DNA of 64,000 nt, taken from IMG/VR virus record IMGVR_UViG_3300020463_000001, positions 64,001 to 128,000 of that record, one strand, 5' to 3'. Under the pieces are notes generated by a model. That model saw nothing but the letters and a program-made list of their open reading frames with translations, made no database searches and was not told where the DNA came from. The stretch comes from a virus (taxonomy: Duplodnaviria; Caudoviricetes). Both the position numbers and the translations under genes were made by a program. Below, one piece after another: positions 5,248-60,318 of the stretch. Every line of letters begins with the position of its first letter. Positions within the stretch are counted from its first letter, which is position 1.

Positions 5248-5255
5248 TATAAATA
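5248..5255 (+). promoter_or_regulatory. T4-type late promoter (TATAAATA)
   Basis: Exact TATAAATA in the gp7-gp8 intergenic gap, followed by a GAGG RBS. Confidence 0.8.
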
Positions 5256-17599: not shown

Positions 17600-19576
17600 A
17601 TGGCAATAAAATTAATAAACAGTCTTAACGATTTGCCTAATTATGGTGTTTCTGTGTCTAGATCTGGGTTTACCAAACTCACAGATACTGGAGGAATCGA
17701 TAGCACTGGAGCAGTTTCTGGCGTGGGTCTCATGATGACTCTTGCATCAGATATGACTGCCAGCTGGCAACTATATAATGGAGATTCAACTCCAGACAAT
17801 AAAATACAATTGGTCGGTGTCGGAGATAATGCGAATACTGATGTTACTAAACAATTTTTTAATCAGTTGCCTATCAATTCTCAGACGTATTTCGGTCAAG
17901 CAAACTTCGGGCCAGTGGGAAATTTAAGACAACACGTTTTACTATTCGAAACAACCAACGAAATATTACCAAATCGCGGATCAGTATCTAGAGGAGTCGA
18001 TCAATCATATAGAGTAAGATTTGAATTTGATGAACGCCCCAGATTACATACAACAGATGTTGAATTTAATAGAGAACTGTATCAGTTAAATTTAAGACTG
18101 AGGTCTATGGGAAGAGCGCAGTATGTTGTCGGGTCTCAAATAAACGAAACCTCGACTTCGCAACATCAACTAGAAACCACTAAAGATGCAGATAATAATT
18201 TAGTTCATACTGGTTATACGTTCAACGGCACTTGGGCGGTATCCGATGGGATACCAAATTGTATGTATGGATGGATGAAAATTAATGTAGGTACATCAAA
18301 TCAACTTTTGAACAATGGAACTGTATTAGAATCGATATCGGGTAACGATGGTCTTATCACCCTAGAAAATGGATCTACTCTTACTACATCAGTTGTACGA
18401 ACTCCGGGCGAATTGGTAGATCTTCATTTTGAAGATGTGGTGATACCAGCACAATCTCTCGTTTTTCCATACGATGGTATTAATCAATATTCAGTGGGAG
18501 AAGTTATTTCTGGGCCTGGCGGAGCATCTGCTACTGTTCATAGTGTATCGACATCCTCTACAACTCAAAGTGTTACTTTTTCTGATTGGAATAACATCGA
18601 TTTTGATGAGGGGGAAACTATTACTGGCGCAAATAGTTCTTTGTCTCTTTCTTTAACTCTTGTTACTACACAAATAAATAGAAGTAAGAGATTTAGAAAT
18701 AAGAGAAAGGGAAAGGGTTGGTTCAAGAGATTTCCTAAAATTGGAACAAATCTTGAAGGAACTTATCCCATGTCATATCGATTAACTATGACAGAACGGG
18801 GATTTGTTTTATATATGTTTGATGATGCTGCCAGTGATCAATCAGATGATTATGCTTGGACTTGTGTTCAAAGAACTGTTGATAATACAGAGGGAACTAC
18901 GCCGTCAGACGAATCTACCAGATTTCCTGTCCATGTTCTATATTCTTGTTCCAGAGAAAGTGTATATGCGAGAGATTTCGGTGTATATTTCTCCGAGTCT
19001 GCCGCAAACCTTCAAACTGCAGAAACTGCAGTTAACAGTGTTTTTGATAATGAGGGGAATCAGTACACAGTAGATAGCCTAGGAAATGATAGTTTTTATA
19101 TTTTAAGTCCTTACGATAGAGAAGATTCTCTTGCAGATGAATTTACTGCAAAACTTATCTGGCGATTTGTTGCGAGAGAATTTGATATATTAAAACCTTG
19201 GGATGTTCATAAACTTGCGACTAAACACCAGACCGACAGTAATGCGATTATAAATCCTCTAGAACAGTTAGCAATCACTAACGACAATAGATTTGTAATT
19301 ACATTCCCAACTGGTTTGACAACGCAAAGATTTATGTATCCGAAAGAAGAAATAGACCTCATATGTTTTTCTTCTGCGGAGGTTGTGGCTGAAGGAAGTA
19401 ATGTTCCTATGAATACATATCTTCCTTCTGGAAACGCAGACAATAGAAGATATCAGGGAATGAGGTCAACTCTTGCTAATGGAAATGGCATGAGAATTAT
19501 GTTATTAGTGAACGGAAGACACATCTTTAACAGTGATGTTAACATTGGAACAGATACTTCCGCAAACTTAATTTAA
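17600..19576 (+). CDS. Virion structural protein, paralog family A member 1
   Basis: Shares YPMSYRLT..DDYAW..VQR..VD, RFV.RE.D.LKPWD, INP.EQL.IT and NGNGMR blocks with the ORFs at 19637, 23356 and 37390. Confidence 0.7.
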   Translation: MAIKLINSLNDLPNYGVSVSRSGFTKLTDTGGIDSTGAVSGVGLMMTLASDMTASWQLYNGDSTPDNKIQLVGVGDNANTDVTKQFFNQLPINSQTYFGQANFGPVGNLRQHVLLFETTNEILPNRGSVSRGVDQSYRVRFEFDERPRLHTTDVEFNRELYQLNLRLRSMGRAQYVVGSQINETSTSQHQLETTKDADNNLVHTGYTFNGTWAVSDGIPNCMYGWMKINVGTSNQLLNNGTVLESISGNDGLITLENGSTLTTSVVRTPGELVDLHFEDVVIPAQSLVFPYDGINQYSVGEVISGPGGASATVHSVSTSSTTQSVTFSDWNNIDFDEGETITGANSSLSLSLTLVTTQINRSKRFRNKRKGKGWFKRFPKIGTNLEGTYPMSYRLTMTERGFVLYMFDDAASDQSDDYAWTCVQRTVDNTEGTTPSDESTRFPVHVLYSCSRESVYARDFGVYFSESAANLQTAETAVNSVFDNEGNQYTVDSLGNDSFYILSPYDREDSLADEFTAKLIWRFVAREFDILKPWDVHKLATKHQTDSNAIINPLEQLAITNDNRFVITFPTGLTTQRFMYPKEEIDLICFSSAEVVAEGSNVPMNTYLPSGNADNRRYQGMRSTLANGNGMRIMLLVNGRHIFNSDVNIGTDTSANLI

Positions 19577-19592
19577 GTGATGAAAAAAGTTT

Positions 19593-19600
19593 TATAAATA
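19593..19600 (+). promoter_or_regulatory. T4-type late promoter (TATAAATA)
   Basis: Exact motif in the intergenic gap; AAGGAG RBS before the ATG at 19637. Confidence 0.8.
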
Positions 19601-19636
19601 GTCAGATAAGTAAAATATGTCTCAAAGGAGAAAATA

Positions 19637-22600
19637 ATGCCTGTTGCAAGTGGATATAGTATTCAAAGAAATGAAATCATTAATATACCTCATCGTCAGC
19701 AATATGAAACCCATTCTGCTGAAGGTACAAAGAACCAGTTTTTCTTGAGGTCTAAGATTGATTTCGCAAGTAAAGATTGGGAGTGGAGCATCAAAGTTGG
19801 TGGTGTTCGCTATGATTTAGACAGAACAATCTCTCCTGCCTCTGTTACAAATGGAGGAAACTCCCAAAGAAATGCTCAGGGAGTTTCAGCGGCCAGCGGT
19901 ACTGCTTCTGGTAAGACTGACCAAGCAATTTGGGATTCTTCTACGGAAACCTATGCAGAAGGAGATACTGTTTCTGGATCTGGCGCGGTAAAGTTTGATC
20001 AGAGTCTTGGTGTATTCGGGGGCATCGAATTCGCACCAGAGTATACTCCATCCGGCAACGAAATCCTAGAGATTACATATCAAGAACATGAAACTCAATG
20101 GACTGGTTCCAGAGGCGGACTTCTTTTCCAACTTGCAAGTGATATGTGTATCCATCCGTATGATTCTCCAGAGATATTCAAGTATATGGGTTCCGCTAGT
20201 CCAATTGGACTTTCAGAGTCTTTTAGTGAGGACTTTAGTGAGAACCCAGCAACTAACACTGCTCAAGCGATTGAGGATGCTAGAAAAACTGCAAGAACTC
20301 CTAATGCGGTTTACAAACTTATTAGAGAACACTCAGTAACATATTCGGCTGTAGATATATCGGACTCAGATCCGTCCAACATTACTCCAAAAACATTAAC
20401 TAGTGATTTCCCATTTTCTATTGCTGATTTAGGAGACGGAGAATTCCGAGTATCTATTGCAGGAAGAGTTATCCAAGATGAATACTGGTCTGTTGAACAA
20501 AACTCAGATCGTTCTGTAACCATTAAGTTATTGGTTGCTTCTTCTGAATTCAACTGGGTATCTGACGCAAGTTCCGTCGAAGTTATTGTAGGTTTTCACT
20601 GGAAGCATTCACTCGCAGTTCCATTTGGTGCAAAGTTTGGGCCATTCGATCCTGACGGCGGACAAATCACATATACCAACCCGTCTTCTGGAAATAGAGC
20701 AACTATATTATTTTCTGATCTTGTCGATGATACCGATCCAGATAATCCGGTTGCGACTGGACTTAACACTGGTAAAACTCAATCTGCAGACTTAGATTTT
20801 ATCAAGTCAGGAGATCTGTTCCTACTAGAATTCAAAGATGACGAACAGTTTATCCCTGCGTTTAATCTGATTCACCCCAAACCAGTAAGTAATTCCAAAG
20901 AAGATGTTCTTGCTGCACTGAAACAAGTCACTACAAAATTTCTTGTAGAATCCGCAAGAGGAACTGACTTGCTATCAGATGACGAATTGACTCCGATCTC
21001 TACCGATCCAACATCAAATAAGACCAAACCACAAAACTGGAGAATTCGTTTTGAGTATAGTGGTGATGGTGCTCAGATTAAGGTCAATGTTGCAACAGAA
21101 TATCAACTCCTTGATGACATGACAATTACGCAAGGGCAAGGAAGAGATGGTGCGAAATATCCCATCTACAGAGAGCCGGGCGAATTATGTGATGTTTACC
21201 AAGAACCAAGTATTGGTCGAGGTGTTGTCACCAGAATTCAAAAGGCCAAGTCACAATTCTTTACAAGAGTTTCTAAATCTGAGGATGAGGTCGCAAGATC
21301 ATATCCAATGTCATATAGAATGACAGTAACCGACCACGGCATGGGATTGTTCATATTTGACCAAGCGTCAGTAGACCAAGATGATGATTATTCTTGGTTC
21401 GTTGTACAACGTCATGTTGATCAATCTACTGGACAACCAGAATTCTCAGGTAAGTCTCCTGTACACTGTGTATACTCGCCAACAAAACGACCAGTAGAAA
21501 TTAGTGATTTAAACACATATTACTCAACACAAGATGTTGCAGATCTTTCTAAGCCAAGAAATATCTTCGATAGTTTTGGTAGAGAATTAGAAACAGAAGC
21601 TCCTACAATCTTTGTAAATAGAGATCAGAGTTTCTTTAATGACTTTGTGAACGCAATTGACTTCACAGGAACATACGCTATTCCAGAAACTTCTGGTGGT
21701 CAATCGGTGTATAAAGATGAACTAGATGTTGGTTTTATCGGCGGTGCGGATGTCAGTGATGATATCGCAATACTATATTGGAATGATGGAGCAAGCGATC
21801 CCAAACCAATAAATGAATTACAAATTTTAGGATTTGAGAGATTAGGAAGATCTGGACAAGGAACAAATATCGGAAGGGTGGCCAATACTATTGGGCCATT
21901 TGCTACGGCGACAGCACCGTCTGTTTCGATTAATTCTCAAAATGGTGCAAGTTGGCAGACAAACCCAGCACAACAGACTGGAACACAACTTTCTGGAAAC
22001 GTAACATTCCCAGTTTCTGCATTAGAAGCAGTTTCTAATTTTGAAGATGCTACTAGTCAAACTCCGGGCCCGACTGCTACTGCTCCTGCAACTCTTTCAG
22101 ATTGGGACGATCCATCTTATGCACTCTTAGATATCCTCTTCAACGAAGTATCTGCAAACAGAGAAAAGGTATTTGAAAGTTTAGTAGTTGCTCTTGACGG
22201 AGTAGAAATCCTACGAGATCCTAACGCATATGTCCTTACATATGACGAATGGGTACGAAATGGAGATCCATCAACAGTACAAAGATTCTTAGAGGGTCTT
22301 GATAATGCTGGTGTTAAAAATTTTGGAACTAGCTTTAAGTTGCCGGAAAATTCTAGCAATGTCACTGCGAACTTTATCACTAACATTGGGAATGCGAAAA
22401 ACGAATCTAAGAGTACCAGTAGTCAGTCTGGAGACGATTATGATACTGACTTTGTAACTAATATACAAGGTCTAAATACAACAGCCTATCTAGTAATTTC
22501 TACAGATTCTGTTGGGTTGAGAGGTAAATTGCCAGGAGATCCAATCTTCTCAGATTACGGAACATCTCAGCTGAACTTGACTGCAGGGCCCAACAGGTAT

Positions 22601-23308
22601 CTGTATGACTTCTTCAACCAGACTCTGTACTTTAGAGACACACCAAGATCAGGTTCTTCGTTCTCTATGAAGTTGGTGAACTATAACTCATCTACTCCAT
22701 CACAGACCACATACATTGTGACGGTTCCGCCGGATAGAGATCTTCCGGATCGTAACCAAAACTCTGTTAAGACTATCAACAGGTTTATCGTAAGAGAAAG
22801 TGATGTATTGAAACCTTGGGATTATCATACTTCTGCAACAATGCATGAGGCAGATTCTAACTCAATCATCAACCCACAAGAGCAGTTGTCAATCACTCAG
22901 GATAGGGATTTCGTATTTAGTTTCCCAACTCAGTTGACTTCTCAGAGATTCTATTATCCTAGAAGTGAATTAGACTTGATTGCGATTTCTTCTGCTGACT
23001 TCTCTACACAGGCTGGTCACATTGAAATTGACAAGTATTCTGACTCTGACGGAAAGAACGGAACTCTATTTGTTGGCGCTAATCAAGAAGGTATCAATCC
23101 TACTGGAATTTCTGATAGTGCTGGGCCATTTAGGTTTGCAGCGCATACCGGGCCAGACAACAGACAGTACATCTGGAAGAAGAATAAGAGGAAGTATGAA
23201 GGTATGATGAGTACAGAACCAAATGGTAACGGTATGAGAGTGTTCTTACAGGTTACTGGTTCTAGTGTACGTTATAGTGATGTTACCGAAGGTGAAGCTC
23301 CAGCATAA
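19637..23308 (+). CDS. Virion structural protein, paralog family A member 2
   Basis: 1223 aa; same conserved blocks (SYPMSYRMTVTDHG, DDDYSWFVVQRHVD, RFIVRESDVLKPWD, INPQEQLSITQD, NGNGMRV). Confidence 0.7.
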   Translation: MPVASGYSIQRNEIINIPHRQQYETHSAEGTKNQFFLRSKIDFASKDWEWSIKVGGVRYDLDRTISPASVTNGGNSQRNAQGVSAASGTASGKTDQAIWDSSTETYAEGDTVSGSGAVKFDQSLGVFGGIEFAPEYTPSGNEILEITYQEHETQWTGSRGGLLFQLASDMCIHPYDSPEIFKYMGSASPIGLSESFSEDFSENPATNTAQAIEDARKTARTPNAVYKLIREHSVTYSAVDISDSDPSNITPKTLTSDFPFSIADLGDGEFRVSIAGRVIQDEYWSVEQNSDRSVTIKLLVASSEFNWVSDASSVEVIVGFHWKHSLAVPFGAKFGPFDPDGGQITYTNPSSGNRATILFSDLVDDTDPDNPVATGLNTGKTQSADLDFIKSGDLFLLEFKDDEQFIPAFNLIHPKPVSNSKEDVLAALKQVTTKFLVESARGTDLLSDDELTPISTDPTSNKTKPQNWRIRFEYSGDGAQIKVNVATEYQLLDDMTITQGQGRDGAKYPIYREPGELCDVYQEPSIGRGVVTRIQKAKSQFFTRVSKSEDEVARSYPMSYRMTVTDHGMGLFIFDQASVDQDDDYSWFVVQRHVDQSTGQPEFSGKSPVHCVYSPTKRPVEISDLNTYYSTQDVADLSKPRNIFDSFGRELETEAPTIFVNRDQSFFNDFVNAIDFTGTYAIPETSGGQSVYKDELDVGFIGGADVSDDIAILYWNDGASDPKPINELQILGFERLGRSGQGTNIGRVANTIGPFATATAPSVSINSQNGASWQTNPAQQTGTQLSGNVTFPVSALEAVSNFEDATSQTPGPTATAPATLSDWDDPSYALLDILFNEVSANREKVFESLVVALDGVEILRDPNAYVLTYDEWVRNGDPSTVQRFLEGLDNAGVKNFGTSFKLPENSSNVTANFITNIGNAKNESKSTSSQSGDDYDTDFVTNIQGLNTTAYLVISTDSVGLRGKLPGDPIFSDYGTSQLNLTAGPNRYLYDFFNQTLYFRDTPRSGSSFSMKLVNYNSSTPSQTTYIVTVPPDRDLPDRNQNSVKTINRFIVRESDVLKPWDYHTSATMHEADSNSIINPQEQLSITQDRDFVFSFPTQLTSQRFYYPRSELDLIAISSADFSTQAGHIEIDKYSDSDGKNGTLFVGANQEGINPTGISDSAGPFRFAAHTGPDNRQYIWKKNKRKYEGMMSTEPNGNGMRVFLQVTGSSVRYSDVTEGEAPA

Positions 23309-23331
23309 GGAGTTCCCCCTTCGTAATATCT

Positions 23332-23339
23332 CATAAATA
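23332..23339 (+). promoter_or_regulatory. Probable variant late promoter (CATAAATA)
   Basis: One mismatch to consensus, in the intergenic gap before the GAGG RBS of 23356. Confidence 0.5.
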
Positions 23340-23355
23340 ATATAAAGAGGAAAGT

Positions 23356-26300
23356 ATGTCTTCGACTTTGAATTATCCATTTAAGTCTTCCGGATTTTCA
23401 GTACAAAGAAATGAAATACTTACTGTTCAACCTCCTTATTATACTCACCTATTACAAGGAGATGGGACATCAACTTCGTTTCCAGTTTATGCGGAAGAAG
23501 GAAAGAAACCAAATCTGAACTTATCAGACGTTCAGCAGTTTCGCGTGTTTCAAAACTCTGTCAATGGGCCAGAATATAGTTTAGATAATATAACTGGCGA
23601 TTCTTCTTTCTCAAACAACGGCGAATTCTATTATACTCCTCCGCAAACTTCAGATGATTCTGATAACGGAACTATAACATTTAGAACTGCTCCAGCTGGA
23701 GGATTAAAAATTCTAGTTCAATACTTTCCTGTAGTTAACTCAGGAAATGCTGATCCAGCAGGAATTCTTCAGAGTCTTGCGAAAGATTTAACATTACATC
23801 CATATCGAAATGATTTCTCTGAAGCATGGTCATCTAATCAACAGAAGAAATCTACTGCCACCATTAATCTTGCAACTAATTTTGTTGAACAGTCAGGAAC
23901 CATAACAGTAACTGATTCTGATGGGGCCTCAGTCAATTTTGATGCAAATGATGTCGGAAAAAGAATTAGAGAGAAATATGGATCTGGTATGTTTGTGATA
24001 GATTCTGTTACAGATAATGTTGCAAATATAACTGTAGTATCACCAAAGTCCGATTCCTCTACGACTTCTTATACAGAGGGAGAGTGGATGTTAATAATTC
24101 CTAGCTCTGATGTAGAACCTCAAGCATATAATATTATTTATCCGAGAGTACAAGATTCTGATATTACACATCCATCAATAAATTTTGATGGACAACAAGA
24201 TCACACCTCAGTTATGGATTGTATCAGAAGAATCGGGTCTGTATTTGTAGTAGAATCGGAAAAGGGAACAGACATTCTTTCCTCACTAAAAGACATTGAT
24301 TCTTCTAATACATTTATACCTACTACTGCCGTTGCTTCTCAAGTCGCACAGGAAAATCGAACACCACAAAAATGGAGAATGAGATTCTTTTATGATACTA
24401 GAGATGAATACATTCATGTAAATATTGGAACTAAATTTCAAATAATGGACGATGGAGATATATCTCAAACAGTAGGCAGGGATGGCATAACATCTGGCCC
24501 CACAAGAAATCCCGGCGAACTTTCCGATGTATACTATAAGTTTGACGAAAGAGGAAATAAAGCAAAATCTGGTTTTTATAGAAGACAAGGAAAGACTGAT
24601 ACAAATATCGCTGGAAGTTATCCTATATCATATCGACTTACTTGTTCGGATCATGGTACTGCGTTTTTTATCCAAGATCAAGCATCTATAGACGATGATG
24701 ATTATGCATGGTTTGTTGTGCAACGTCATGTCAATAATATTTCTGGTAAAATAGATCTGGAAGACGGAAAGTCTCCCGTTCATTGTGTCTATGCACCCTC
24801 TAAGCGTCCCACAGAGGCGTCCGATTTTAACATGGGTTTCTATGCATCATATTCATCACAAACCTTTGCTAACGGAAAGACAGTCATTGAAACAACAGAT
24901 TTGGGCCCAATCTTTAAAACTGATGGAACTCAACTAACACCAGAGACACCAATACAATTTACCATCGTTACTGACAAAGATCCAGTAGCAGTTTCTTCTG
25001 CAGGAACATCATACTATAGAGGAACAAGTTATAGAATCCCTCCTAGTGATTACGATCCAATTCACGAAATCAATATTGCAGATTATGCTTTGGGTTCTGG
25101 AAACTATGCACTTCCTCTTGGATCTAATTATACTACAAAGGGTGTTTATAACAAACTTATGCCACCCGATGTGGGACTTAATACTGCAGGCGATATGTTG
25201 GGATATCCAATTGGTCAGACAGGAACTCCAACTCCCAACGCACCAACTGATGCGATAGAAACTGCAGATCAGGAATTTGCGGTCATATCTTATGCATCAG
25301 CAGCAACATCTGGTATTCAATTATCTAATCCGGATGGGCTTAAATATGTCCCTAAAAAATTAAATACATTAAGTCTTTCTAGACAAGAACAACTGGGCCC
25401 AGCAGAATCTGGGTTATCTCCATATCAAGTTCAAATTTTCGACATTGATTCTGGGGGAAGTAATGGGTTAGCCGATCTTGTCGAAGGAATAGATTATAAT
25501 ATTGTAAAAGAAAATGATGAATACTGGTACTTTCAATTTGTCACAAAAGATACGGATAATATCATTCCTAATGCATACATATCTGATCTTGTTGAGGGCC
25601 CAAATATGCCCGGCGCAAATTCTTCCAATCCTAAATCTTTATCTAGGATGGGGTGGTATGATTCTTCTGGCATTTTAGTCGAACCAAGAAATGTTCTATT
25701 AAACGGGGCAATCATACCAAGCTCGCATTATACTATTGATCAGGAAATAAACTTCACAGTCAAGGTTGCGGCTTTTAATATTCCGGCAGGGTTCGCCTCT
25801 GCAGATCTTACTTTTGATAATGGAAATAGAACAGCATCTGGAGTATCTGTAACACAGACCGGAACACAAGGAGAGTTTGCAGTTTCTGTAGTAGTTAATG
25901 AATCAGACTCGACACCTTTCCCAATAGGTTCCAGTGTTATTATGGAAGACTCTGGAAACACTTATACGTTTATTGTTGACGAAGTTTCTACAACTATGGT
26001 AATAGATCCGATATTTAAATATGTTAGGGGCGATACTGTAGTACTTGGTAATAGTGATGTACTAGAAATTAAATCTTATTTCAGTCCAGAGAATACAAAG
26101 ATTATTTTATCTTATGTTTGGAATGGGGCTGGTTATCAAAACAAATATATCAATCCATTTGGAGGTTCATCACAAATAAGATCACAAACTCAGATTAAAC
26201 CTCTTTATGAAGTTAATAGGTTAGATGTTTTTGTAAATGGAGTAGAAATTAATTCTTCTCCGTATCCAAATGGGTATTTTATAGAATCTGATGGTGATGT

Positions 26301-27117
26301 AACATTTAGAGATATAAGTTTGAGTTTACAAAACGAATATGTCTACTCTATGCCTCAGGATACAATATATATTAAGAATGATTTAGTGAAGGGAGAACAA
26401 CTCAAATTCTCTTATGAAAATTATAATTCTGCAGAGGAAACGGACTCTTCTGCAGCATCTTATTTGTTGGAAATACCAGAAGATAGAGATATACCAAGTG
26501 CTTGGTCTAATTTGCACAAAGATACAATTGCAATATACAGATTTGTTGTGAGAGAAGATGATGTTCTTAAGCCTTGGGATTTTCATGTGTCTGCGATAAT
26601 TCCACAAATAGATAGTCCAGCTATTATCAACCCACAGGAACAATTGTCAATCACTCAGGATAAGACTTTTGTATTTACATTCCCTTCTCCTTTGACAACT
26701 CAGAAGTTTATCTATCCAAACTCTGAAATGGATTTACTGTGTTATTCTGGTGCAAGTTCATCTACCCTTGGAGGATTCACTAGTATTGGTACTGCAGCGT
26801 CTCCTAAATACGATCTGGATGGAAAACAAGTAAGTCTTGCAACTGACATCACTGGATCTTACAGTCTCGACAACGGAATTGGAGTTGCGCCTAGCGCATC
26901 ATCTGCGGGGGATTATACTTCTGCGAGTGGTGATGTTCTTAACTACAGAGACATATATTCTTGGCACACCGGAACTGACACATCAACAACTTCTGCATCT
27001 AGATCTTATGTGGGTATGCAATCTACACAAAGTTATGGAAACGGCATGAGAATATTCGTTCTAGTAAGAGGTGGGCCAATCAATCCTATATATTCGGATT
27101 TTGTTGTTAGGACTTAA
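23356..27117 (+). CDS. Virion structural protein, paralog family A member 3
   Basis: 1253 aa; SYPISYRLTCSDHG, DDDYAWFVVQRHVN, RFVVREDDVLKPWD, INPQEQLSITQD, YGNGMRI. Confidence 0.7.
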   Translation: MSSTLNYPFKSSGFSVQRNEILTVQPPYYTHLLQGDGTSTSFPVYAEEGKKPNLNLSDVQQFRVFQNSVNGPEYSLDNITGDSSFSNNGEFYYTPPQTSDDSDNGTITFRTAPAGGLKILVQYFPVVNSGNADPAGILQSLAKDLTLHPYRNDFSEAWSSNQQKKSTATINLATNFVEQSGTITVTDSDGASVNFDANDVGKRIREKYGSGMFVIDSVTDNVANITVVSPKSDSSTTSYTEGEWMLIIPSSDVEPQAYNIIYPRVQDSDITHPSINFDGQQDHTSVMDCIRRIGSVFVVESEKGTDILSSLKDIDSSNTFIPTTAVASQVAQENRTPQKWRMRFFYDTRDEYIHVNIGTKFQIMDDGDISQTVGRDGITSGPTRNPGELSDVYYKFDERGNKAKSGFYRRQGKTDTNIAGSYPISYRLTCSDHGTAFFIQDQASIDDDDYAWFVVQRHVNNISGKIDLEDGKSPVHCVYAPSKRPTEASDFNMGFYASYSSQTFANGKTVIETTDLGPIFKTDGTQLTPETPIQFTIVTDKDPVAVSSAGTSYYRGTSYRIPPSDYDPIHEINIADYALGSGNYALPLGSNYTTKGVYNKLMPPDVGLNTAGDMLGYPIGQTGTPTPNAPTDAIETADQEFAVISYASAATSGIQLSNPDGLKYVPKKLNTLSLSRQEQLGPAESGLSPYQVQIFDIDSGGSNGLADLVEGIDYNIVKENDEYWYFQFVTKDTDNIIPNAYISDLVEGPNMPGANSSNPKSLSRMGWYDSSGILVEPRNVLLNGAIIPSSHYTIDQEINFTVKVAAFNIPAGFASADLTFDNGNRTASGVSVTQTGTQGEFAVSVVVNESDSTPFPIGSSVIMEDSGNTYTFIVDEVSTTMVIDPIFKYVRGDTVVLGNSDVLEIKSYFSPENTKIILSYVWNGAGYQNKYINPFGGSSQIRSQTQIKPLYEVNRLDVFVNGVEINSSPYPNGYFIESDGDVTFRDISLSLQNEYVYSMPQDTIYIKNDLVKGEQLKFSYENYNSAEETDSSAASYLLEIPEDRDIPSAWSNLHKDTIAIYRFVVREDDVLKPWDFHVSAIIPQIDSPAIINPQEQLSITQDKTFVFTFPSPLTTQKFIYPNSEMDLLCYSGASSSTLGGFTSIGTAASPKYDLDGKQVSLATDITGSYSLDNGIGVAPSASSAGDYTSASGDVLNYRDIYSWHTGTDTSTTSASRSYVGMQSTQSYGNGMRIFVLVRGGPINPIYSDFVVRT

Positions 27118-27132
27118 ACCTTAATAAATTAT

Positions 27133-27140
27133 CATAAATA
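27133..27140 (+). promoter_or_regulatory. Probable variant late promoter (CATAAATA)
   Basis: One mismatch to consensus, abutting the terminator hairpin. Confidence 0.45.
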
Positions 27141-27166
27141 AAAGGAGGCTTGTGTCTCCTTTTTTT
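27141..27166 (+). terminator. Rho-independent terminator
   Basis: Stem AAAGGAGGC / loop TTGT / GTCTCCTTT (one G-U pair) followed by a T run, just after ORF 23356-27117. Confidence 0.75.
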
Positions 27167-27182
27167 ATATCCAGAGAACCCG

Positions 27183-30614: not shown

Positions 30615-30615
30615 G

Positions 30616-33291
30616 ATGCCAGTATTTTTTGGATCCGGTAATATAATAACGAAAGCGAAGACAGTTCGTATGTCTTCATTTATCTATACTGAAGCTTCCG
30701 AAGTTGATATTACCTATGAAAACCACTTCAAAGAATATGTCATTGACATGGTTGATGGGTTTTCTGAGCGTCAAAATATTTACTATGATCCATTTAAATA
30801 CAGCGATTATCTTGACCGAGTTACTTCTACTTCATTTGATACCAAGGAAGTCTATAGTGGAGAAAGATACAATACATTTTTCAATTCCCCCGAGCATAAC
30901 TTGGAATATATTTTGGGATCTTCTTTTAATACAGAAGACAACACTAATCTTATAAACACCAAATATGTTTCGGAGATATATCAATCTCTGGATAATCTTC
31001 TTTCTACTGGAATGTCTTACGAAGAAGTAAGTGCAAAAATTCGAGTGCAATTGTTAGCATATTCATTTATGACTCTAGATGTATTTGAAAGAAAGAAAGA
31101 GTACGCTCTTAGAAATTTAAATATAGTCGAGGATCAAATAAAAGAACTTGGCGGACAAGATATAGAATCGAAACAATTACTTCAAGCACTTTATTTTAGC
31201 ACAAGTAGTCAAGATGTTAAATCCGCACTAAATCCTCTTGACGGAACTCTCAATTTAAATATTGTTACTGAACTATTTATTAAATCTAGACTAGAAGACT
31301 TCTCACTAAATAAGAGTTCGTTTATTTTAGATATAGAAGAAAGGGGAATATACAAAGAAATAGAAAGGGCCACTTTTGAAGAAACTGTTCCCATTCTACA
31401 AAATCCGGAAACTGGTCTTTACTATCTAGAGTTTAAAGATACGATAGAACAGATAGACGATTCTATGTTTTTTGATAACGATGTGGATAGAGTGTATGAG
31501 GCTCAGAATTTAATATACGGAAGTCCTAATGTAGAATATCATCCAATTAATAATTTCTTCCAAAGATATATGCCAAGACAAGCAGCATCAGGTGAACATC
31601 ATGAAATCATTTCGGATCTTGTAATTGAAACTGAATTTTATACCCAAGAGAAAAATGATATATTAATTAACCTAGAACCAAAGTATATCTCAGATAACGA
31701 CAAGACTTTTATTCGTAGTATATTCTATATTGAACTAGACGATTATCAGGATTATCTTGGTTATGTTCCATATGTTAAATCTTCTACAGATACTGCATAT
31801 ATTCCGGACGAACAGTTTTTACAAACAAAAGTTCACATCCCAGATAAGAATATCTTTAAGTTTAGATATGAAGAAATTAAGTTTGGTGGTAAATATGTGG
31901 TCACTGAGGCTGGAGAAGTATTTGTATTTTACAATACTATGGAAGCAAGATATGCCGGATACTATAAAGACTATGATACTCTTTATGAATACATCAATGA
32001 TTTATTCTTATCGACAAACTTGTCTTCGCATGATTCTATAAAACCACATGAAACATTATATTATAGACCAGAATCAAATCATCCAATAAACGGAGGATCT
32101 CATTTGGGTCATACTGTTCCTCATGTTATGGTCATGAGTAATAGCACCAGACTTATGGAAACAGAATACATAAAAGAAACTACTGCAGAAAATGTTGATC
32201 AAGAATACAGATTCTTTCAAAGTGTTGTGGGAAGAGATGCGGCGTTTGGAAAACTTTTTGAGTTTGACCCAGTATATCACGATTTAGATCAAAACGCAAT
32301 AGGAGATACTTTTAATTTTGTTTATGAGGTGGTCAGTGGCAGATTGCCTAATTGTTTGACTCTCAATAATTCTATCATTAGTGGAAATATAGGAGAAACA
32401 GAACAGTTTCTGAAACAGTATTCATACGAATCGTGGATTAAAAATCAAAATCTAGAAATAGATACCAACTACGAAGATTTCAATCCAGAAGAGGTCAAGG
32501 AAATAGAAGTTACAATTGTTGGTAGGGCCACAACGCGAGGAACTATAGATATTATAGATGACGTTGGATTTTCTATTGGAGATATTATAACACAAAGAGA
32601 CAGTTCTGGCAACTTACAGGGTTCTGCTACAATAACTAGAATTCTATTTAATTACATCAGAGAGTTTTCTGTTCTTGGCGCAGACCCACAAGATCTCAAT
32701 ATTATACGATATGAAATAGATAATATTGAAGGCTCATTCATCGCATCAGAGATAAATCAGATAATTGTGAACGATGAACTGAGAATTGTACTAGAAAGTA
32801 TCCAAAGGGCAAATGGGTTGATGGTTCTGGAATCAGAATTATCTACTGCTAGTGGATTAATAAAACAAATTGACTTAATTTTCCCCATAAATAATAATTA
32901 CACCTATGATAAAGATAGGTTCTTATTAAATACTGAAGGTATATCTGACAGAGAAGATCAATATGAATGGTTGACCTACATGAGAAGTCAAGGTCATTAT
33001 AGATTTGATGTAGATGCGAATATCGCTGCAATACAAGAATCCATAAATGAATTGACAAAGGATTACAGAGCAGGCAGAACCAATCTTACTCAGAAACAGT
33101 TTAATGAAGAAATAGAGTTTCTGGAGTTATCGAAAGGTAATCCTTTCGAAGAAGAAACTTACGAAAGATTAGAAAGAATAGAAGAATTTAAATTGGATTG
33201 TAAAGAAGAAGTGGACGAACAAACTTACTACGAAGACAATCCAGAAAGAGTTACGACAAGAGGATACCCAATATATGTCAGCTGTAACTAG
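30616..33291 (+). CDS. Hypothetical protein, likely virion-associated, with an Ig/cadherin-like segment
   Basis: 891 aa ORF; FVYEVVSGRLPNCLTLNNSIISGNIG resembles putative Ig repeats; FSIGDIITQ..GSATITRI module; 3' end overlaps the PAAR gene. Confidence 0.6.
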   Translation: MPVFFGSGNIITKAKTVRMSSFIYTEASEVDITYENHFKEYVIDMVDGFSERQNIYYDPFKYSDYLDRVTSTSFDTKEVYSGERYNTFFNSPEHNLEYILGSSFNTEDNTNLINTKYVSEIYQSLDNLLSTGMSYEEVSAKIRVQLLAYSFMTLDVFERKKEYALRNLNIVEDQIKELGGQDIESKQLLQALYFSTSSQDVKSALNPLDGTLNLNIVTELFIKSRLEDFSLNKSSFILDIEERGIYKEIERATFEETVPILQNPETGLYYLEFKDTIEQIDDSMFFDNDVDRVYEAQNLIYGSPNVEYHPINNFFQRYMPRQAASGEHHEIISDLVIETEFYTQEKNDILINLEPKYISDNDKTFIRSIFYIELDDYQDYLGYVPYVKSSTDTAYIPDEQFLQTKVHIPDKNIFKFRYEEIKFGGKYVVTEAGEVFVFYNTMEARYAGYYKDYDTLYEYINDLFLSTNLSSHDSIKPHETLYYRPESNHPINGGSHLGHTVPHVMVMSNSTRLMETEYIKETTAENVDQEYRFFQSVVGRDAAFGKLFEFDPVYHDLDQNAIGDTFNFVYEVVSGRLPNCLTLNNSIISGNIGETEQFLKQYSYESWIKNQNLEIDTNYEDFNPEEVKEIEVTIVGRATTRGTIDIIDDVGFSIGDIITQRDSSGNLQGSATITRILFNYIREFSVLGADPQDLNIIRYEIDNIEGSFIASEINQIIVNDELRIVLESIQRANGLMVLESELSTASGLIKQIDLIFPINNNYTYDKDRFLLNTEGISDREDQYEWLTYMRSQGHYRFDVDANIAAIQESINELTKDYRAGRTNLTQKQFNEEIEFLELSKGNPFEEETYERLERIEEFKLDCKEEVDEQTYYEDNPERVTTRGYPIYVSCN

Positions 33292-33562
33292 ATTAGGAGA
33301 CTCTTGTACGGGTCATGGTTGTTATGCGCCTAGAGCTTGCATCAAGGGTAGTAGTAACGTCTTTGTGAATGGAAAGGCGGCACATCGAAAAGGAGATGCT
33401 TGGAATCTACATCCTTGCGGAAACTCTAAACATGGGGGAGTTACTTCTGTGGGATCTTCTAGTGTTTATGTAAATGGAAAACCTCTTGCGAGAAAGGGAG
33501 ATCCAATATCTTGTGGATCTGCTATCTTGCAGGGAAGTGACAATGTTAGTGCTGGTGGGTAA
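33275..33562 (+). CDS. gp5.4: PAAR-repeat spike-tip protein (T4 gp5.4-like)
   Basis: AVTRLGDSCTGH; NVFVNGKAAHRKGD; SVYVNGKPLARKGDPISCGS. Three PAAR-like repeats with Cys/His metal ligands, 95 aa. Confidence 0.92.
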   Translation: MSAVTRLGDSCTGHGCYAPRACIKGSSNVFVNGKAAHRKGDAWNLHPCGNSKHGGVTSVGSSSVYVNGKPLARKGDPISCGSAILQGSDNVSAGG

Positions 33563-33573
33563 GGAGATAAACT

Positions 33574-36393: not shown

Positions 36394-36401
36394 AGGCAAT
36401 A

Positions 36402-37313: not shown

Positions 37314-37329
37314 TAGAATGAAAAATAAT

Positions 37330-37337
37330 TATAAATA
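37330..37337 (+). promoter_or_regulatory. T4-type late promoter (TATAAATA)
   Basis: Exact motif in the intergenic gap; AAGGAG RBS downstream. Confidence 0.8.
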
Positions 37338-37389
37338 CTAAGACAATCACACTAAATATAGTATTAATTTAAGCGCAAAGGAGCTCCAT

Positions 37390-40300
37390 ATGGGCGTCAA
37401 TCTTGAACGAAATAATGTCATACATCTTGACGGATATCATTGGGATAAAGAAAAAGATGACGATAAACCACTTCTTAGTCAGCTAACAGACGATCTATTG
37501 GCCAACGGATTTACAGACGTTGGGCCAGAAGTAATTAAACTCACAATCTCTGACAGCGAGTTGACTTCGTTTATCGATAAATTTATCGTATACCACTATG
37601 ATTCTGATCCCTCTACGGTTGGAGGTGGAGCGTTTGGTAATGCATTTGAAGACTCCAAAAAAATACCAAACTATACTGTGCCTGCAGTTAACGAACATGA
37701 TCATAATAAATTTGTTTACGACTTACCTTTAGGAAATGGAGAAGATCCAACAGGCCAAAGATTCAAATACATTCACCAAGCATATGCCGATGCAGAACGA
37801 TGGAATAAAAGGTGGTCAGAGTTCCCTACATTAGAACAAATTTCGGGATCAACATCCGCTGCATCTTACCTTGGCCCAAACTCCGAATTGTTTGCGTATT
37901 TAAATCCACACCCATCGAATATGATGACTAATGAAACTAGTCAAACCCTACCTTCTGGTGTTATAAATCATCAGAGTCGAGTTAAGAAAATTATTTTTAA
38001 TATCGGTGCAGATAAGTACGAGAGAGTATTTAATCAACTGGATACTGTTGGTGAAGAGGGTTCCGGTGTCTTCTTGGGATCAAATCGAGGACAAGAAGCA
38101 ATTAGTATTTCTAGTCAAACTGGATCTCTTACTGGAGATAATGACTCTAGTGGAAGTATAGATGATAATTTTCCTCTCGCAAAAGAAATATATCCCGCTG
38201 CAGCAAGATTTACTGAAGTTGCTCAATTTAGAGTTGGACAGAGAGTTGTTGGTGAACAATCAGGAGCAATCGGTGTTGTAACAGAATTTATAGATGCAAA
38301 TGGAGATCCCTGTGTAGTGGGTAAAAACATATTTGAAAAGAATATGATGTATGACCCAGAGTTACTTGCAAATGTCAGAGGCCAAACTGCAACACATATT
38401 TCTGATGGAACTAAAAGCGTTCTAGAGTTTTCTACAGATTTTTCTATCGCAGATTTTGATGAAACTGTAGATCAAGTTTATACAGTAACTACAACCGATT
38501 CTTCTGATGTCGTAACAAAATTAACCTCGACAGGTCTTACGCCAAATTATTCTACAAATGGAACTGGAATTACATTTTTAGATTTTGGTGGACAACCAGT
38601 ATCAGTAGGAAATGAGTTGACTGTAACTGTCTCTTATGGCCCGAAAATGTTAAAAAGCAGACTCCCAAGTGCTGGGATGGTTTATGGTGGAAACTATGTT
38701 CCAGAATACGACTTGCCCGATGACGAAGATTCTACTCGCGGAAAAATAATCACAAGAGTTAATGTTGAAAAGAAACCATATGGAAATCTACAAAGAAAAA
38801 CTGTCTTTATAGACGAATGGGTAGAACAGACAGAGGGAAGACAACTTGTAGTAGAAGCATTGTCTAAAGATTTCTTCCCCGGCGAAAAAATCTTTTCAGA
38901 AAACCCTTTTGGAGATGACGACAATTCTACTGCAGAACTGACTGGATGGTCAGAACCAATAGATGTGACTGTAAACTATGAGAACAAATCGGTGTCAAAT
39001 ACCTTTACTATGGCTGGCACTTTTAATGCTCAAGATCATGATATAAGTATAGTAGTTAGACCTTATAGATTGGTTGGTTCCGGAACATCATCTAAAAGAG
39101 AAGCTTCGGCCGCGGATCAATTTATTCTTGAAGGAGCAACTTTGACTTCTAATAGTGGCCAAAGACTAAAAAATGGAGGGTTTTCTGCGACTCAAATTCA
39201 GTATCCTTCGGGGAGTTATGATTATTGGACTCAATCTGGACCTGGCCAGGCAAATGCAACTGAAAGTGGGCCCAGCCAACAGTCGTCATTGCGTAATGCT
39301 CAGATTATAGTAACTGTATCGGCCAAAGAACCAGATTATACTACTCTTTCTAGAATTCCTCCACAATCTACCGGATTTTCTAATTCCGGTGTTCAAACTC
39401 TTGGAGAAAAGGGAGATAAGACAGGAGATTTTGGAGCTCTTACTTTTTCAAAGTTAAGTAGATTTAGTGCTCAAACCGAATTAACAAATGTCGCCGATAA
39501 AAACACTAATGATATAGTACACAGTTCAAGTATTGGTGCCGGTTCAGCAGAGTCTTTATCCTTTAGAATAGAATTTGAAAGAGAGAAAAGTCTTCTTAAC
39601 AAAATAGAACCTGTAACTGATCAGTTTGATATCAATAATCAAGTGGTTGTGAATCTTGTAAATGATTCTTTGGGAACTTCTCATCAAGTCGGAGATAGTT
39701 TTACTGTTAGTTCTTGGGACAATGATGATGTAAGAAACGCTGCAACTACTCAATATTTTCCGGCATTAGTTGTCGGATGGATCAAATCAAAATCCTCCGG
39801 CATGCCTGCCGGTAAGCAACGGGTAACTTTTGACGAACAAAACGAGTATGATGGTAGAGGTGCATCTCCTACAGAAAGAATGAGTTACGTAACTCTTGAT
39901 ATGGTACAACCCGAAGAGTCTAATGAATTTATTGTAAATTCTGGAGAAGGTAAGACATTTCTAAAGAAAGATCCGCAAGGTGGGGTAATTTCTGGAACTG
40001 GGTATTCTACTGGATATGTAGGAATCGGAACAGTTGCTAAACTTGTTTACGAAAATGAATATAACAAAGTTAAGAGATGTTTGATCAATTCTGCAAGAGG
40101 TGTTAAGTTTTCTCCGGAAGATGTTACTACTGGTCTGTCTACTTCCACCGAAGCAAGTTTAGTTCAGTATAAAGAAGAAGAACTAGTTCAAGGAAATAAA
40201 CATCATTTCTGGATTGCGTTAGATAAATCAGAAACATTCTTTACTTCAGATCAAATAGAACCAAAGACTCTTCTGGGATCTATGACTTTATCTATGAAAA

Positions 40301-43300
40301 CAGAAGATAATAGTTCCCCATCGGCACTGGCGGTAACAGGTATGCAGTTAGGAGATGTTTATACTTTTACTCTACAAAGGATTAAAGGAAGATATACTGG
40401 AGCTTCTAGTGATGTATTATTTGGCGATCCAGTAACTGTTCAGATTACTGTAGAGTCTACTTCTATTTCTGACTTTGCATTAGAATTAGCGAACGAGTTG
40501 AATGATAATTTACCAGAATATAGTTTTGAGATAGATTCGGAGAATACATCTAATATATTGTTTAGATCTAATAAAGTAGGATTTGATTTATCTATTGGTT
40601 ACAATTCTTCAAACTATTCAGAAAGTTTAGAACCAGTTAGAATAGAATCTGATAGAGCCAACTTTGGAATGAGTCCAGTCGATACGAGTGTTAGAAGCGC
40701 TTCTTCTACTCCAATTGGTATAACTGCAATCAACGGTTCTTTCGGTGTTGCTGTAAAGGATAGTTCCGATGCAAATGGTAATTATTATTTGGGAGGATAT
40801 CATCATAAGATTGATTTCGCTCTTCCAAACGAAGCCTACTATGGAGATAAATTTGAGTTTGTATTAAGTGGTTTGATAACTCAGAGTTCTATTTCGGAAA
40901 TCTACACTACTCCTTCAACTTTTGATTTAACTTTGGAGTATACTGCGGATAGAAGATTTAACAGTTCCGCATCGTTAGGTGCTGCCATTAAGAATTCAGT
41001 TATAACTAATTCTTATATATCTAAGTTTATGAAAGTAAGTCTAGAATCAAACCTAATTAAGTTTGAATATACACCAGACTCATGGGCGTATCTAGACAAG
41101 ACATCTATACATAACCAAACTGGTGCATATGGATTAATGAATGAAAATTCTTCTAAATACACATCAGTTTATGCTACAGGATCATCTGATTCAGATCCAT
41201 TTGGTTCTGTAATTACTGCAGCGACAGGATTAGCAGACGATTCATTCTTAGTTATTATGAATGAAATGACATCAAATGGATATACAGATATTCCTACTAC
41301 TGTATCTTTATATGATATGGAAGTATGGGACGGAACACAATACACAAACAATACAATGTATGTAGACGATCTACCATCAGAAGCAGTGTTTACTGGTCAA
41401 CTTACAGTTACACCAATGACTCAGTATGAGTTCACTGACGATGATACTGGAGGTTTGGGGCCTCTACAAACAATTGGTTTTGTAAGATCTCAATTACCTT
41501 CTTCTCTGGTAAGACAAAAAGTTAAAATTAAGTTTCCATTTGCCAGAGATTTTGGAACATTTGCGGATCCAATAACTCACTTATCAGATGCTGTCGGGGC
41601 AAGTTATAATAATTCATCCACATCTACTGCAGATGCTACGTCTCATCCGACAACTTTGGGAGGGAATACTAAGTATTTTACTTCTTACAAACAACACGTT
41701 ATTGGTGCAGCAGGGCCTAAGTTTGTCTCTGAAGCTGGGACTACATATTCTTCAACCGGATTTATATCTCAGGGAGATAGAAAGGGCCCAGAAACCTCAT
41801 TTGACCCAGATCTGAGAGGGTATCATCCAGAAGTTTCTGTGTCCGATAACTACGCACACTATTCTTCTTTCCCATACCATGAGTGTGGTTTAGAATTAGA
41901 AAGTTTTGAGTTTATCGCAGATCACTCAATCGGGCCGATTGTTCTTGAAACAAATGACCAATCAAACTTAGGTGGTGTTGGCGGAGATCAACCTTGGAGA
42001 ATTCGTTTCGAAGTCAGTAGAGGTTATGAAGTAACAGATGCGTCTCCATTTATTGCAACTCAAAACTATCAAGGTGTTGGGGGAAATAAAGGAAATACTG
42101 AGTTTGAATATCTGAAAGTACACGTTGCGACAGAATATCAAATTAAAGGTGATGGAACTGTAACTTCTATACAAAGTGCAGATGGACTTGAAAAAGGAGA
42201 ATTTAGAGAGCCAGGATTCCTTGGTGGTGTTAGACCTCAATACTCAGGATATGTTCGAGCAAGAACTCACTTAATATCGCCAGAAGTTACTGATTATTTG
42301 GAAGTTCAATCACTTCAAGCAATAAGAACTAGTGGTCTGAATCCTTCTGCCGGTATTGTTGGATTTAAGGATTATAATAAAGTAGTTTCTGGCACAGAAG
42401 GCGAAAGAATTCTTGGGGGAGGAACTTCTGACGGAACAGAAACAACTAAAGCAGAATTTAGATATGAAGATAAATATCTGAGAGGATCAAGTACAGAATT
42501 AGTATTTGATACTCCATTCAATACTGGTACTCTGAGAATGCAGAAAGGATTCTTTAGAAGAACTGGTAAACAAGAAAGAAGTGTTGCATTATCATACCCA
42601 ATGAGTTATACATTAACTGTTGCGGATCACGGTGTTGTTTTCTATCTCAGAGATCAAGCCGCAAGCGCACAAGCAGACGATTATGCATGGTTTGTTATTC
42701 AGAGACACGTTGATTCTACAACTGGTGTTCCGGATTATGATTCATTATCACAACCAGTACACTGTGTATATCAAACGTCTGAACCGCCTTTGTTGTATTC
42801 CGATTTGACTCCATTCTTCTCTGTAGATGAATCCAGTGGAGAAACTACAGACAGAACAACTTCTGCCTTTGTAGAAGGACTAACAAATCAATTCGGATCT
42901 AGAATCTTTGACTTCAGAGTCGATGAATTTGTAGAACAGGAATTGAAGGCTTTTGATATTGAGAACCAAGGACGATTCAGAAGATTCGTAGTTCGCGAGA
43001 AAGACGTACTGAAACCTTGGGATAGACACGTTTTCGCCGGTATATCTGAGACGGACTCTCATGCGGTACTAAATATATTAGAACAACTTGCATTGAATGA
43101 AGACGGACAATTAGTAATCCAGTTCCCGAATAGATTGGGATCACAGAGATACTTCTTTACAGGAAAAGAATTGGATTTGATTGCGTTTTCTGATGGAGGT
43201 GCCGTAGGTCAGGATACTTTGATAACAAGTGATCGATTCAGTACTACTGGTACAACAGACAAGAGAAGACTGTATAAGGCACTTATGTCAACGAAACCTT

Positions 43301-43386
43301 TTGGTAATGGTATGAGAGTTTTGACAATGGTCGCTGGATATGGAATCACATCATCACAGGCGGATACGCGGCTCCTATCATCGTAA
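37390..43386 (+). CDS. Virion structural protein, paralog family A member 4 (largest)
   Basis: 1998 aa; the C-terminal third carries PWRIRFE, SYPMSYTLTVADHG, DDYAWFVIQRHVD, RFVVREKDVLKPWD, FGNGMRV. Confidence 0.7.
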   Translation: MGVNLERNNVIHLDGYHWDKEKDDDKPLLSQLTDDLLANGFTDVGPEVIKLTISDSELTSFIDKFIVYHYDSDPSTVGGGAFGNAFEDSKKIPNYTVPAVNEHDHNKFVYDLPLGNGEDPTGQRFKYIHQAYADAERWNKRWSEFPTLEQISGSTSAASYLGPNSELFAYLNPHPSNMMTNETSQTLPSGVINHQSRVKKIIFNIGADKYERVFNQLDTVGEEGSGVFLGSNRGQEAISISSQTGSLTGDNDSSGSIDDNFPLAKEIYPAAARFTEVAQFRVGQRVVGEQSGAIGVVTEFIDANGDPCVVGKNIFEKNMMYDPELLANVRGQTATHISDGTKSVLEFSTDFSIADFDETVDQVYTVTTTDSSDVVTKLTSTGLTPNYSTNGTGITFLDFGGQPVSVGNELTVTVSYGPKMLKSRLPSAGMVYGGNYVPEYDLPDDEDSTRGKIITRVNVEKKPYGNLQRKTVFIDEWVEQTEGRQLVVEALSKDFFPGEKIFSENPFGDDDNSTAELTGWSEPIDVTVNYENKSVSNTFTMAGTFNAQDHDISIVVRPYRLVGSGTSSKREASAADQFILEGATLTSNSGQRLKNGGFSATQIQYPSGSYDYWTQSGPGQANATESGPSQQSSLRNAQIIVTVSAKEPDYTTLSRIPPQSTGFSNSGVQTLGEKGDKTGDFGALTFSKLSRFSAQTELTNVADKNTNDIVHSSSIGAGSAESLSFRIEFEREKSLLNKIEPVTDQFDINNQVVVNLVNDSLGTSHQVGDSFTVSSWDNDDVRNAATTQYFPALVVGWIKSKSSGMPAGKQRVTFDEQNEYDGRGASPTERMSYVTLDMVQPEESNEFIVNSGEGKTFLKKDPQGGVISGTGYSTGYVGIGTVAKLVYENEYNKVKRCLINSARGVKFSPEDVTTGLSTSTEASLVQYKEEELVQGNKHHFWIALDKSETFFTSDQIEPKTLLGSMTLSMKTEDNSSPSALAVTGMQLGDVYTFTLQRIKGRYTGASSDVLFGDPVTVQITVESTSISDFALELANELNDNLPEYSFEIDSENTSNILFRSNKVGFDLSIGYNSSNYSESLEPVRIESDRANFGMSPVDTSVRSASSTPIGITAINGSFGVAVKDSSDANGNYYLGGYHHKIDFALPNEAYYGDKFEFVLSGLITQSSISEIYTTPSTFDLTLEYTADRRFNSSASLGAAIKNSVITNSYISKFMKVSLESNLIKFEYTPDSWAYLDKTSIHNQTGAYGLMNENSSKYTSVYATGSSDSDPFGSVITAATGLADDSFLVIMNEMTSNGYTDIPTTVSLYDMEVWDGTQYTNNTMYVDDLPSEAVFTGQLTVTPMTQYEFTDDDTGGLGPLQTIGFVRSQLPSSLVRQKVKIKFPFARDFGTFADPITHLSDAVGASYNNSSTSTADATSHPTTLGGNTKYFTSYKQHVIGAAGPKFVSEAGTTYSSTGFISQGDRKGPETSFDPDLRGYHPEVSVSDNYAHYSSFPYHECGLELESFEFIADHSIGPIVLETNDQSNLGGVGGDQPWRIRFEVSRGYEVTDASPFIATQNYQGVGGNKGNTEFEYLKVHVATEYQIKGDGTVTSIQSADGLEKGEFREPGFLGGVRPQYSGYVRARTHLISPEVTDYLEVQSLQAIRTSGLNPSAGIVGFKDYNKVVSGTEGERILGGGTSDGTETTKAEFRYEDKYLRGSSTELVFDTPFNTGTLRMQKGFFRRTGKQERSVALSYPMSYTLTVADHGVVFYLRDQAASAQADDYAWFVIQRHVDSTTGVPDYDSLSQPVHCVYQTSEPPLLYSDLTPFFSVDESSGETTDRTTSAFVEGLTNQFGSRIFDFRVDEFVEQELKAFDIENQGRFRRFVVREKDVLKPWDRHVFAGISETDSHAVLNILEQLALNEDGQLVIQFPNRLGSQRYFFTGKELDLIAFSDGGAVGQDTLITSDRFSTTGTTDKRRLYKALMSTKPFGNGMRVLTMVAGYGITSSQADTRLLSS

Positions 43387-60317: not shown

Positions 60318-60318
60318 C

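Follow-up and report, generated by a model that had tools for sequence, protein, structure and literature searches.

A 64,000-nucleotide stretch of the IMG/VR virus record IMGVR_UViG_3300020463_000001 (bases 64001-128000 of 200,733 bp, with direct terminal repeats; hereafter, the window) was found to carry four large paralogous genes that probably encode a hetero-oligomeric baseplate-arm scaffold, in which a dimerizing core would display variable adhesion inserts. The virus is an uncultured marine T4-like phage, and PHROG scans showed a T4-like late region across the window. The four genes sit between gp6, a gp7-like gene and gp8 on one side and gp13, gp14 and gp15 on the other, with fiber genes and a PAAR gene as neighbors. 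An earlier reading of the DNA, made without database searches (the sequence-only reading), had picked them out as open reading frames (ORFs) starting at 17600, 19637, 23356 and 37390, and we confirmed these at 658, 1223, 1253 and 1998 amino acids (aa), respectively. Their products, P0001, P0002, P0003 and P0004, are called paralogs or members 1, 2, 3 and 4 below, and the corresponding orthologous groups par1 to par4.

17600..19576, + strand: paralog 1 (P0001), 658 aa, the shortest; core at residues ~14-52, 135-146, 225-282, 356-455 and 516-642
19637..23308, + strand: paralog 2 (P0002), 1223 aa; core at residues 6-12, 163-170, 409-628, 1043-1138 and 1184-1211
23356..27117, + strand: paralog 3 (P0003), 1253 aa; core at residues 13-19, 138-145, 332-486, 1055-1133 and 1213-1243
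37390..43386, + strand: paralog 4 (P0004), 1998 aa; N-terminal strand and helix at residues 2-52, rest of the core at 1517-1619, 1711-1801 and 1859-1987

The paralogy of the four ORFs is far above chance. BLASTP linked P0002 and P0003 with E values of 3e-52 and 1e-43, and P0001 and P0004 with an E value of 3e-52; a genome-wide search found no others, giving a copy number of four in the whole genome. Of 13 shared motifs listed in the sequence-only reading, 11 occur in exact form in at least three of the four proteins, and the proposed order is kept. Exact copies of the two N-terminal motifs are confined to members 2 and 3, members 1 and 4 having degenerate versions (one residue off or substituted), and SYP(M/I)SY.LT..DHG is exact in members 3 and 4 and in no other member. 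The 19-bp DNA identity reported between paralogs 2 and 3 (22886-22904 = 26644-26662) is exact, and codes for L-S-I-T-Q-D in both genes. The statement that these are not T4 core genes was likewise correct. The sole PHROG matched by the four proteins was phrog_12249, and a Pfam scan at E <= 0.1 returned no match, so that none of them matched the PHROG or Pfam families of T4 gp9, gp10, gp11 or gp12.

The E values of P0001 to P0004 against phrog_12249 were 3.9e-49, 6e-45, 6.3e-35 and 1.4e-37, respectively. Full-length members of this family have ~360-400 aa; examples are gp246 and gp247 of the jumbo myophage Lu11, which are encoded in tandem, adjoin tail-fiber genes and align with phrog_12249 from end to end. 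Homologs in cultured phages came from the Lu11/PaBG/NCTB/Dickeya/Erwinia jumbo group, Atu_ph07 and a few others, and a tblastn search of cultured phages with P0001 detected no carrier among cyanophages or other T4-like phages. Lu11 gp246/gp247, PaBG gp261 and the proteins of Erwinia Y3, Dickeya JA and NCTB are true homologs with the same ordered motifs, often in tandem near tail-fiber genes; the E values were 1e-35 to 1e-49 against the PHROG and 1e-59 to 1e-73 against a hidden Markov model (HMM) of 343 match positions built from 53 minimal forms. These jumbo-myophage homologs are minimal, with 320-400 aa and no inserts, whereas the marine clade is a separate branch with four fixed groups of giant orthologs. 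Searching 1.84 billion representative proteins by profile returned 386 clusters at E <= 1e-3, which fell into a minimal (313-450 aa) and a giant (500-2500 aa) size class. A word-index search for shorter homologs gave mostly contig-end fragments, and searches of the PDB, by sequence with P0001 and by profile with the family alignment at E <= 10, were empty.

The label of phrog_12249 is 'tail sheath', and RefSeq gives the same label to the Lu11, Erwinia and Dickeya homologs (NC_017972 for Lu11 gp246/gp247, NC_047880, NC_048053 and others), the GenBank counterparts being 'hypothetical protein'. Taken at face value, the four proteins would be tail-sheath paralogs or sheath-associated proteins, and a two-component sheath is indeed known in the Lu11/PaBG group (PMC7412058). 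We consider this highly unlikely, and the label is probably a mis-annotation that RefSeq re-annotation is propagating. It looks wrong because the tail sheath gene of the phage itself, gp18, lies directly after gp17, just outside the window (PF17482, 56-61.5 bits; PF04984, 51 bits), because neither of these sheath domains was found in the four proteins or in three minimal forms at E <= 0.1, and because the sheath genes of Lu11 are elsewhere. In Lu11, two proteins with real sheath domains are encoded at 33 kb and 54 kb, as compared with 200 kb for gp246/gp247, and the sheath of PaBG consists of gp213 and gp76, each of ~58 kDa, not of gp261 (PMC7412058). An hhalign comparison of the family with the gp18 of the phage gave a probability of 0.15.

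The predicted fold of the core pointed instead to a pair of baseplate proteins of the Pseudomonas siphophage JBD30. An AlphaFold2 model of P0001, built with 31 homologs, had a predicted local distance difference test score (pLDDT) of 64 and a predicted template modeling score (pTM) of 0.65. Its top match in an exhaustive structural alignment was the JBD30 chain 8rk3_c (Z 13.9 over 256 residues, model 17-638 against chain 2-318), which we took as gp47 by its length (gp47 has 318 aa). With this low-confidence model, Foldseek found nothing significant in the PDB, and the exhaustive aligner alone detected gp47. The model of the minimal member P0123 (53 homologs; pLDDT 89, pTM 0.90) had JBD30 gp47 as its sole PDB match, with a Z of 16.0 and a root-mean-square deviation (rmsd) of 4.0 over 256 of 317 residues, the next match having a Z of 4.8; the alignment spans both chains end to end. 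Foldseek with this model gave gp48 (E 4.8e-5) and gp47 (E 1.6e-4) at a probability of 1.00, the next match having an E value of 0.04. Both models thus indicate that the family core shares the gp47/gp48 fold over its whole chain. Neither a tail-sheath chain nor a nitrilase-type enzyme was among the matches listed in the fold searches of the two models, which does not by itself exclude them, and all matches from the ESM Atlas were unnamed viral clusters (template modeling scores of 0.55-0.66).

JBD30 gp47 and gp48 have similar folds, and their heterodimers make up three lateral arms of the baseplate, which attach to the type IV pilus; each bent arm comprises three gp47-gp48 heterodimers rotated by 180 degrees relative to each other (PMC11445458). 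In six siphophages, the gp47/gp48-like pair follows the tape measure gene and precedes that of the distal tail protein, and in Mesyanzhinovviridae it has been proposed to form tail fibers (PMC11946847). The JBD30 pair (PDB 8RK3; phrog_687; genus Casadabanvirus) resembles the window family in its fold over the whole domain, in consisting of side-by-side paralogs, in forming a twofold-like dimer (observed for JBD30, predicted for the family) and in the location of the genes within a tail-tip or baseplate module. In contrast to the T4-like myophage of the window, with its four genes in the gp8-gp13 interval, JBD30 is a siphophage whose baseplate is threefold, with the tape measure gene on one side of its pair and the distal tail protein gene on the other. 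It also has two paralogs, as compared with four in the marine clade and five in some relatives, and the marine-clade core differs from that of JBD30 in being broken by inserts of up to ~1460 aa here and ~3000 aa in relatives. The authors of the JBD30 study suggested the nitrilase superfamily for gp47 (PMC11445458), and many charged residues (R, E, D, H) are invariant in the core; both points would suit an enzyme such as a hydrolase. However, Pfam has no family for gp47, gp48 or the present proteins, and the invariant residues are concentrated in beta-strands and in the predicted interface described below, and we therefore regard an enzymatic core as very improbable.

The proposal that the four proteins are built on one split core with variable inserts held up well. 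Segments of the minimal-form HMM map colinearly onto each of the four proteins, and the whole core of ~340 residues is present, broken at fixed sites by 40 to ~1460 residues. The N-terminal ~50 HMM positions align weakly with P0001 and P0004 (i-Evalue 0.009-0.015), where they are backed by the motifs and by the structural alignment over 17..638. Inserts recur past the N-terminal strand and helix and at HMM positions ~105-125, ~212-218 and ~295-312. In P0004, the first residues follow the N-terminal consensus of the minimal family; the insert of ~1460 residues comes next, and the core then resumes. The large inserts were located by the HMM mapping, and the small domain of paralog 1 by a structural match to a gp7-like chain.

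Paralog 2, residues ~13-408 and 629-1042, + strand: large inserts
Paralog 3, residues ~20-331 and 487-1054, + strand: large inserts
Paralog 4, residues 53-1516, + strand: insert of ~1460 aa
18449..18682, + strand: paralog 1, residues 284-361, inserted small beta-barrel domain

The inserts, which are acidic and have a high Ser/Thr content, showed no mutual similarity and none to other window proteins, except for part of the N-terminal region of members 2 and 3. The small immunoglobulin (Ig)-like modules that the inserts were thought to carry remain unconfirmed, since the inserts gave no Pfam match at E <= 0.1, no internal repeats and, for P0003 and P0004, only weak leads to unnamed viral clusters in a language-model atlas (scores all < 0.9). 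The one insert that was modeled, residues 284-361 of P0001, matched a gp7-like chain of Klebsiella phage KP1 (9f4a_AY; Z 9.6, rmsd 2.0, 74 residues), and its BFVD matches were to domains of gp7, the 'baseplate wedge initiator'.

To assess dimerization, a complex was predicted for P0146 (392 aa) and its neighbor P0170 (350 aa), tandem minimal forms from the metagenomic contig L099. The two proteins were predicted to bind, with a score of 0.67 as compared with 0.00 for the best of three controls; this mark was attained by 58 out of 80 solved complexes and by 2 out of 110 mismatched pairs. Agreement between the runs covered at least 74% of contacts, with a partner pLDDT of at least 80. The predicted interface is pseudo-twofold, involving equivalent residues of both chains, and maps to the INP.EQL.I and FP..L..QR block, which is conserved in all four window proteins. 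The positions below were mapped from this predicted heterodimer.

19220..19345, + strand: paralog 1, residues 541-582, interface block
22838..22963, + strand: paralog 2, residues 1068-1109, interface block, containing the 19-bp repeat copy at 22886-22904
26596..26721, + strand: paralog 3, residues 1081-1122, interface block, containing the 19-bp repeat copy at 26644-26662
43039..43164, + strand: paralog 4, residues 1884-1925, interface block

One homolog is a virion protein. PaBG gp261 (330 aa) belongs to the family, with 39% identity to P0123 over the full length (E 9e-62), and is band 10 (34.8 kDa) in the structural proteome of PaBG (PMC7412058, Table 1). We also examined copy number and synteny, and found the same four groups in the same order in 65 IMG/VR loci and several metagenome contigs: par1-par2-par3, followed in long contigs by par4 ~20 kb further on. 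In the related loci, par1 is preceded by a giant gene (with DUF4815 where Pfam matches were recorded) and by two or three further genes. All four groups are kept in every related contig of sufficient length, the orthologs having 584-832 (par1), 1222-1738 (par2), 1050-1631 (par3) and 1294-2014 (par4) aa. A fifth orthologous group of 544-3344 aa stands directly after par1 in the IMG/VR loci L049, L067, L064, L065, L068 and L095, and at up to 3344 aa it represents an extreme insert expansion. In a maximum-likelihood tree of the C-terminal core, the marine clade was separated from the minimal jumbo-phage forms with a support of 100/100, and the orthologous groups were supported at 100/100 (par4), 98/92 (par3), 89/94 (par2) and 92/80 (par1). 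The tandem pairs of Lu11 (99/91) and, more weakly, L099 (83/81) grouped by genome, which points to independent duplications.

These data bear on whether the paralogs act together. The main alternative is that each forms a homo-oligomeric appendage of its own, giving four kinds of arm or fiber on one scaffold. PaBG has a single copy, which is present in its virion, the predicted interface joins equivalent residues so that homodimers are plausible, and ~10 kb of other genes separate the tandem triplet from paralog 4 in the window. However, JBD30 and many siphophages always have the family-like fold as an adjacent heterodimerizing pair, tandem pairs arose independently in Lu11 and L099, and the four orthologous groups are kept together in every sufficiently long related contig. 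We give separate homo-oligomers a real but clearly smaller chance than the hetero-oligomeric scaffold. Since the paralogs are old and individually conserved as orthologous groups, they most likely hold distinct, non-interchangeable positions; their age, their individual retention and their conserved block for mutual contact are better explained by fixed positions in a hetero-oligomer than by redundancy.

A further question is where on the particle such a structure would be placed. The proteins might instead be a decoration elsewhere on the virion, forming 'hairs' on the tail surface, whiskers or a collar. Carriers of minimal forms in the Erwinia Y3 group and Atu_ph07 are jumbo myophages, for which the term 'hairy' came from a literature search alone, and a fibritin-like gene is present in the window region. 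Nevertheless, the sole solved relative, gp47/gp48, is located on the baseplate, baseplate and tail-fiber genes surround the family genes in both the window and Lu11, and in siphophages the pair is flanked by the genes for the tape measure and the distal tail protein. A site away from the baseplate thus seems improbable.

On balance, we prefer the hypothesis of a hetero-oligomeric baseplate arm or platform, which would work as follows. The four late proteins of the tail/baseplate module, all built on a beta-rich core of ~340 residues with the predicted gp47/gp48 fold, would dimerize through the pseudo-twofold interface around INP.EQL.I and FP..L..QR. The dimers would chain into arm-like appendages fixed at the baseplate periphery, and the four paralogs would take distinct, non-interchangeable positions in the hetero-oligomeric arm or platform. 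The long, lineage-variable, acidic and Ser/Thr-rich inserts, placed in four or five loops on the core surface, would project outward and may provide the host-contacting surface. The sequence-only reading had likewise proposed a hetero-oligomer of the baseplate periphery or a fiber platform. The gp47/gp48 fold, the heterodimer predicted for the minimal pair and the occurrence of PaBG gp261 in virions speak for that proposal, whereas its Ig-like inserts found no support. A core resembling a characterized baseplate protein had been expected to count against it; the gp47/gp48 fold is in a sense such a resemblance, yet it confirms the role proposed.

Several points weigh against this hypothesis. 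P0146/P0170 is a stand-in pair from another phage, used in place of the window proteins, which are too large uncut, and a like complex, 8RK3, had already been solved, though it has no sequence similarity to this pair. Because the predicted interface is pseudo-symmetric, a heterodimer and a homodimer are indistinguishable. The interface block did not stand out clearly in conservation, its pairwise identity being 46%, as compared with 43% in the rest of the core, in an incomplete alignment from which P0003 was largely missing. The single family copy of PaBG means that hetero-oligomerization is not obligatory in the family. The inserts contain no adhesin domain recognizable in Pfam, repeat and atlas searches. 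Furthermore, hhalign of the family against 12 gp47/gp48-like siphophage proteins gave a probability of 0.1, and PHROG scans gave no cross-matches between phrog_12249 and phrog_687; with no profile signal to gp47/gp48, the relationship holds at the level of the fold only.

The genes occupy the genomic slot, between gp8 and gp13, that in T4 holds gp9, gp10, gp11 and gp12, and presumably share with them a site on the particle and a role in host attachment. In contrast to the dimer predicted for the window family, T4 gp9-gp12 are homotrimers, and no similarity in sequence or fold was detected. We tentatively suggest that the gp47/gp48 arm fold is an ancient dimerizing scaffold of siphophages and myophages, and that in one large clade of marine T4-like phages it has taken the place of the gp9-gp12 periphery of T4. 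It is similarly conceivable, though speculative, that it forms a hetero-oligomeric platform of four or five subunits there, with loops that accept nested inserts of up to ~3000 residues. Such a platform could be a docking site for the 14 putative exchangeable fibers of the phage.

T4-like phages of the sea rank among the most abundant viruses, and 40-50 kb of giant host-attachment genes between their gp8 and gp13 are almost entirely unannotated. For four of these giant genes (~15 kb here), the present analysis provides a predicted fold, a likely principle of assembly and a likely location on the particle, and a probable systematic 'tail sheath' mis-annotation through phrog_12249 is flagged. 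A siphophage arm pair solved only in 2024 is now tied, through its fold, to a jumbo-myophage family and to hundreds of metagenomic protein clusters. A conserved dimerizing core with hypervariable inserts in its loops offers a testable model for the diversification of receptor binding; if correct, such 'loop-display' would be a general route to host-range variation, unlike the swapping of fiber tips.

In the PHROG scans, the late region surrounding the four genes had the following order.

3-1019: gp6
1024-5238: gp7-like giant gene
5289-6977: gp8
7001-13459: gene for a 2152-aa protein matching phrog_358
59568-64000: gp13, gp14, gp15, gp16 and gp17

Counterparts of the phrog_358 protein in related contigs bear DUF4815 and are always encoded upstream of the paralog triplet, at a distance of a few genes, and this protein may belong to the same structural unit as the paralogs. 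Its gene is followed by ~45 kb of very large genes, on the + strand throughout. Two genes for ~640-aa proteins essentially without family matches (13688-15661 and 15668-17557) lie immediately upstream of paralog 1; in related contigs, their slots hold genes for 400-470 aa and 980-1130 aa. A 95-aa PAAR-repeat protein (phrog_281, E 1.6e-33) is encoded at 33275-33562, between paralogs 3 and 4, and the start of its gene overlaps the 3' end of an 891-aa gene (30616-33291).

Each of the four genes had been credited with a late-promoter-like box of its own. The exact box, TATAAATA, stands upstream of members 2 (19593) and 4 (37330), but those of members 1 and 3, TGTAAATA and CATAAATA, have one mismatch each. 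On the + strand of the window, the exact box occurs at 5248, 13460, 19593, 37330, 43851, 46571, 58499 and 59536; all eight sites are intergenic, most of them just 5' of a gene start, and the - strand has three. Judged by their sequence and position, the exact boxes fit T4-type late promoters that would split the region into several late transcripts.

The large terminase of the phage is ~58% identical to those of cyanomyoviruses, e.g., S-SRM01 and P-SSM2. In the GenBank record of S-SRM01 (MW015081.1), we noticed that the large terminase gene at 128249-129844 is labeled 'tail sheath protein', probably through an off-by-one annotation slip; the RefSeq copy reads terminase large subunit.

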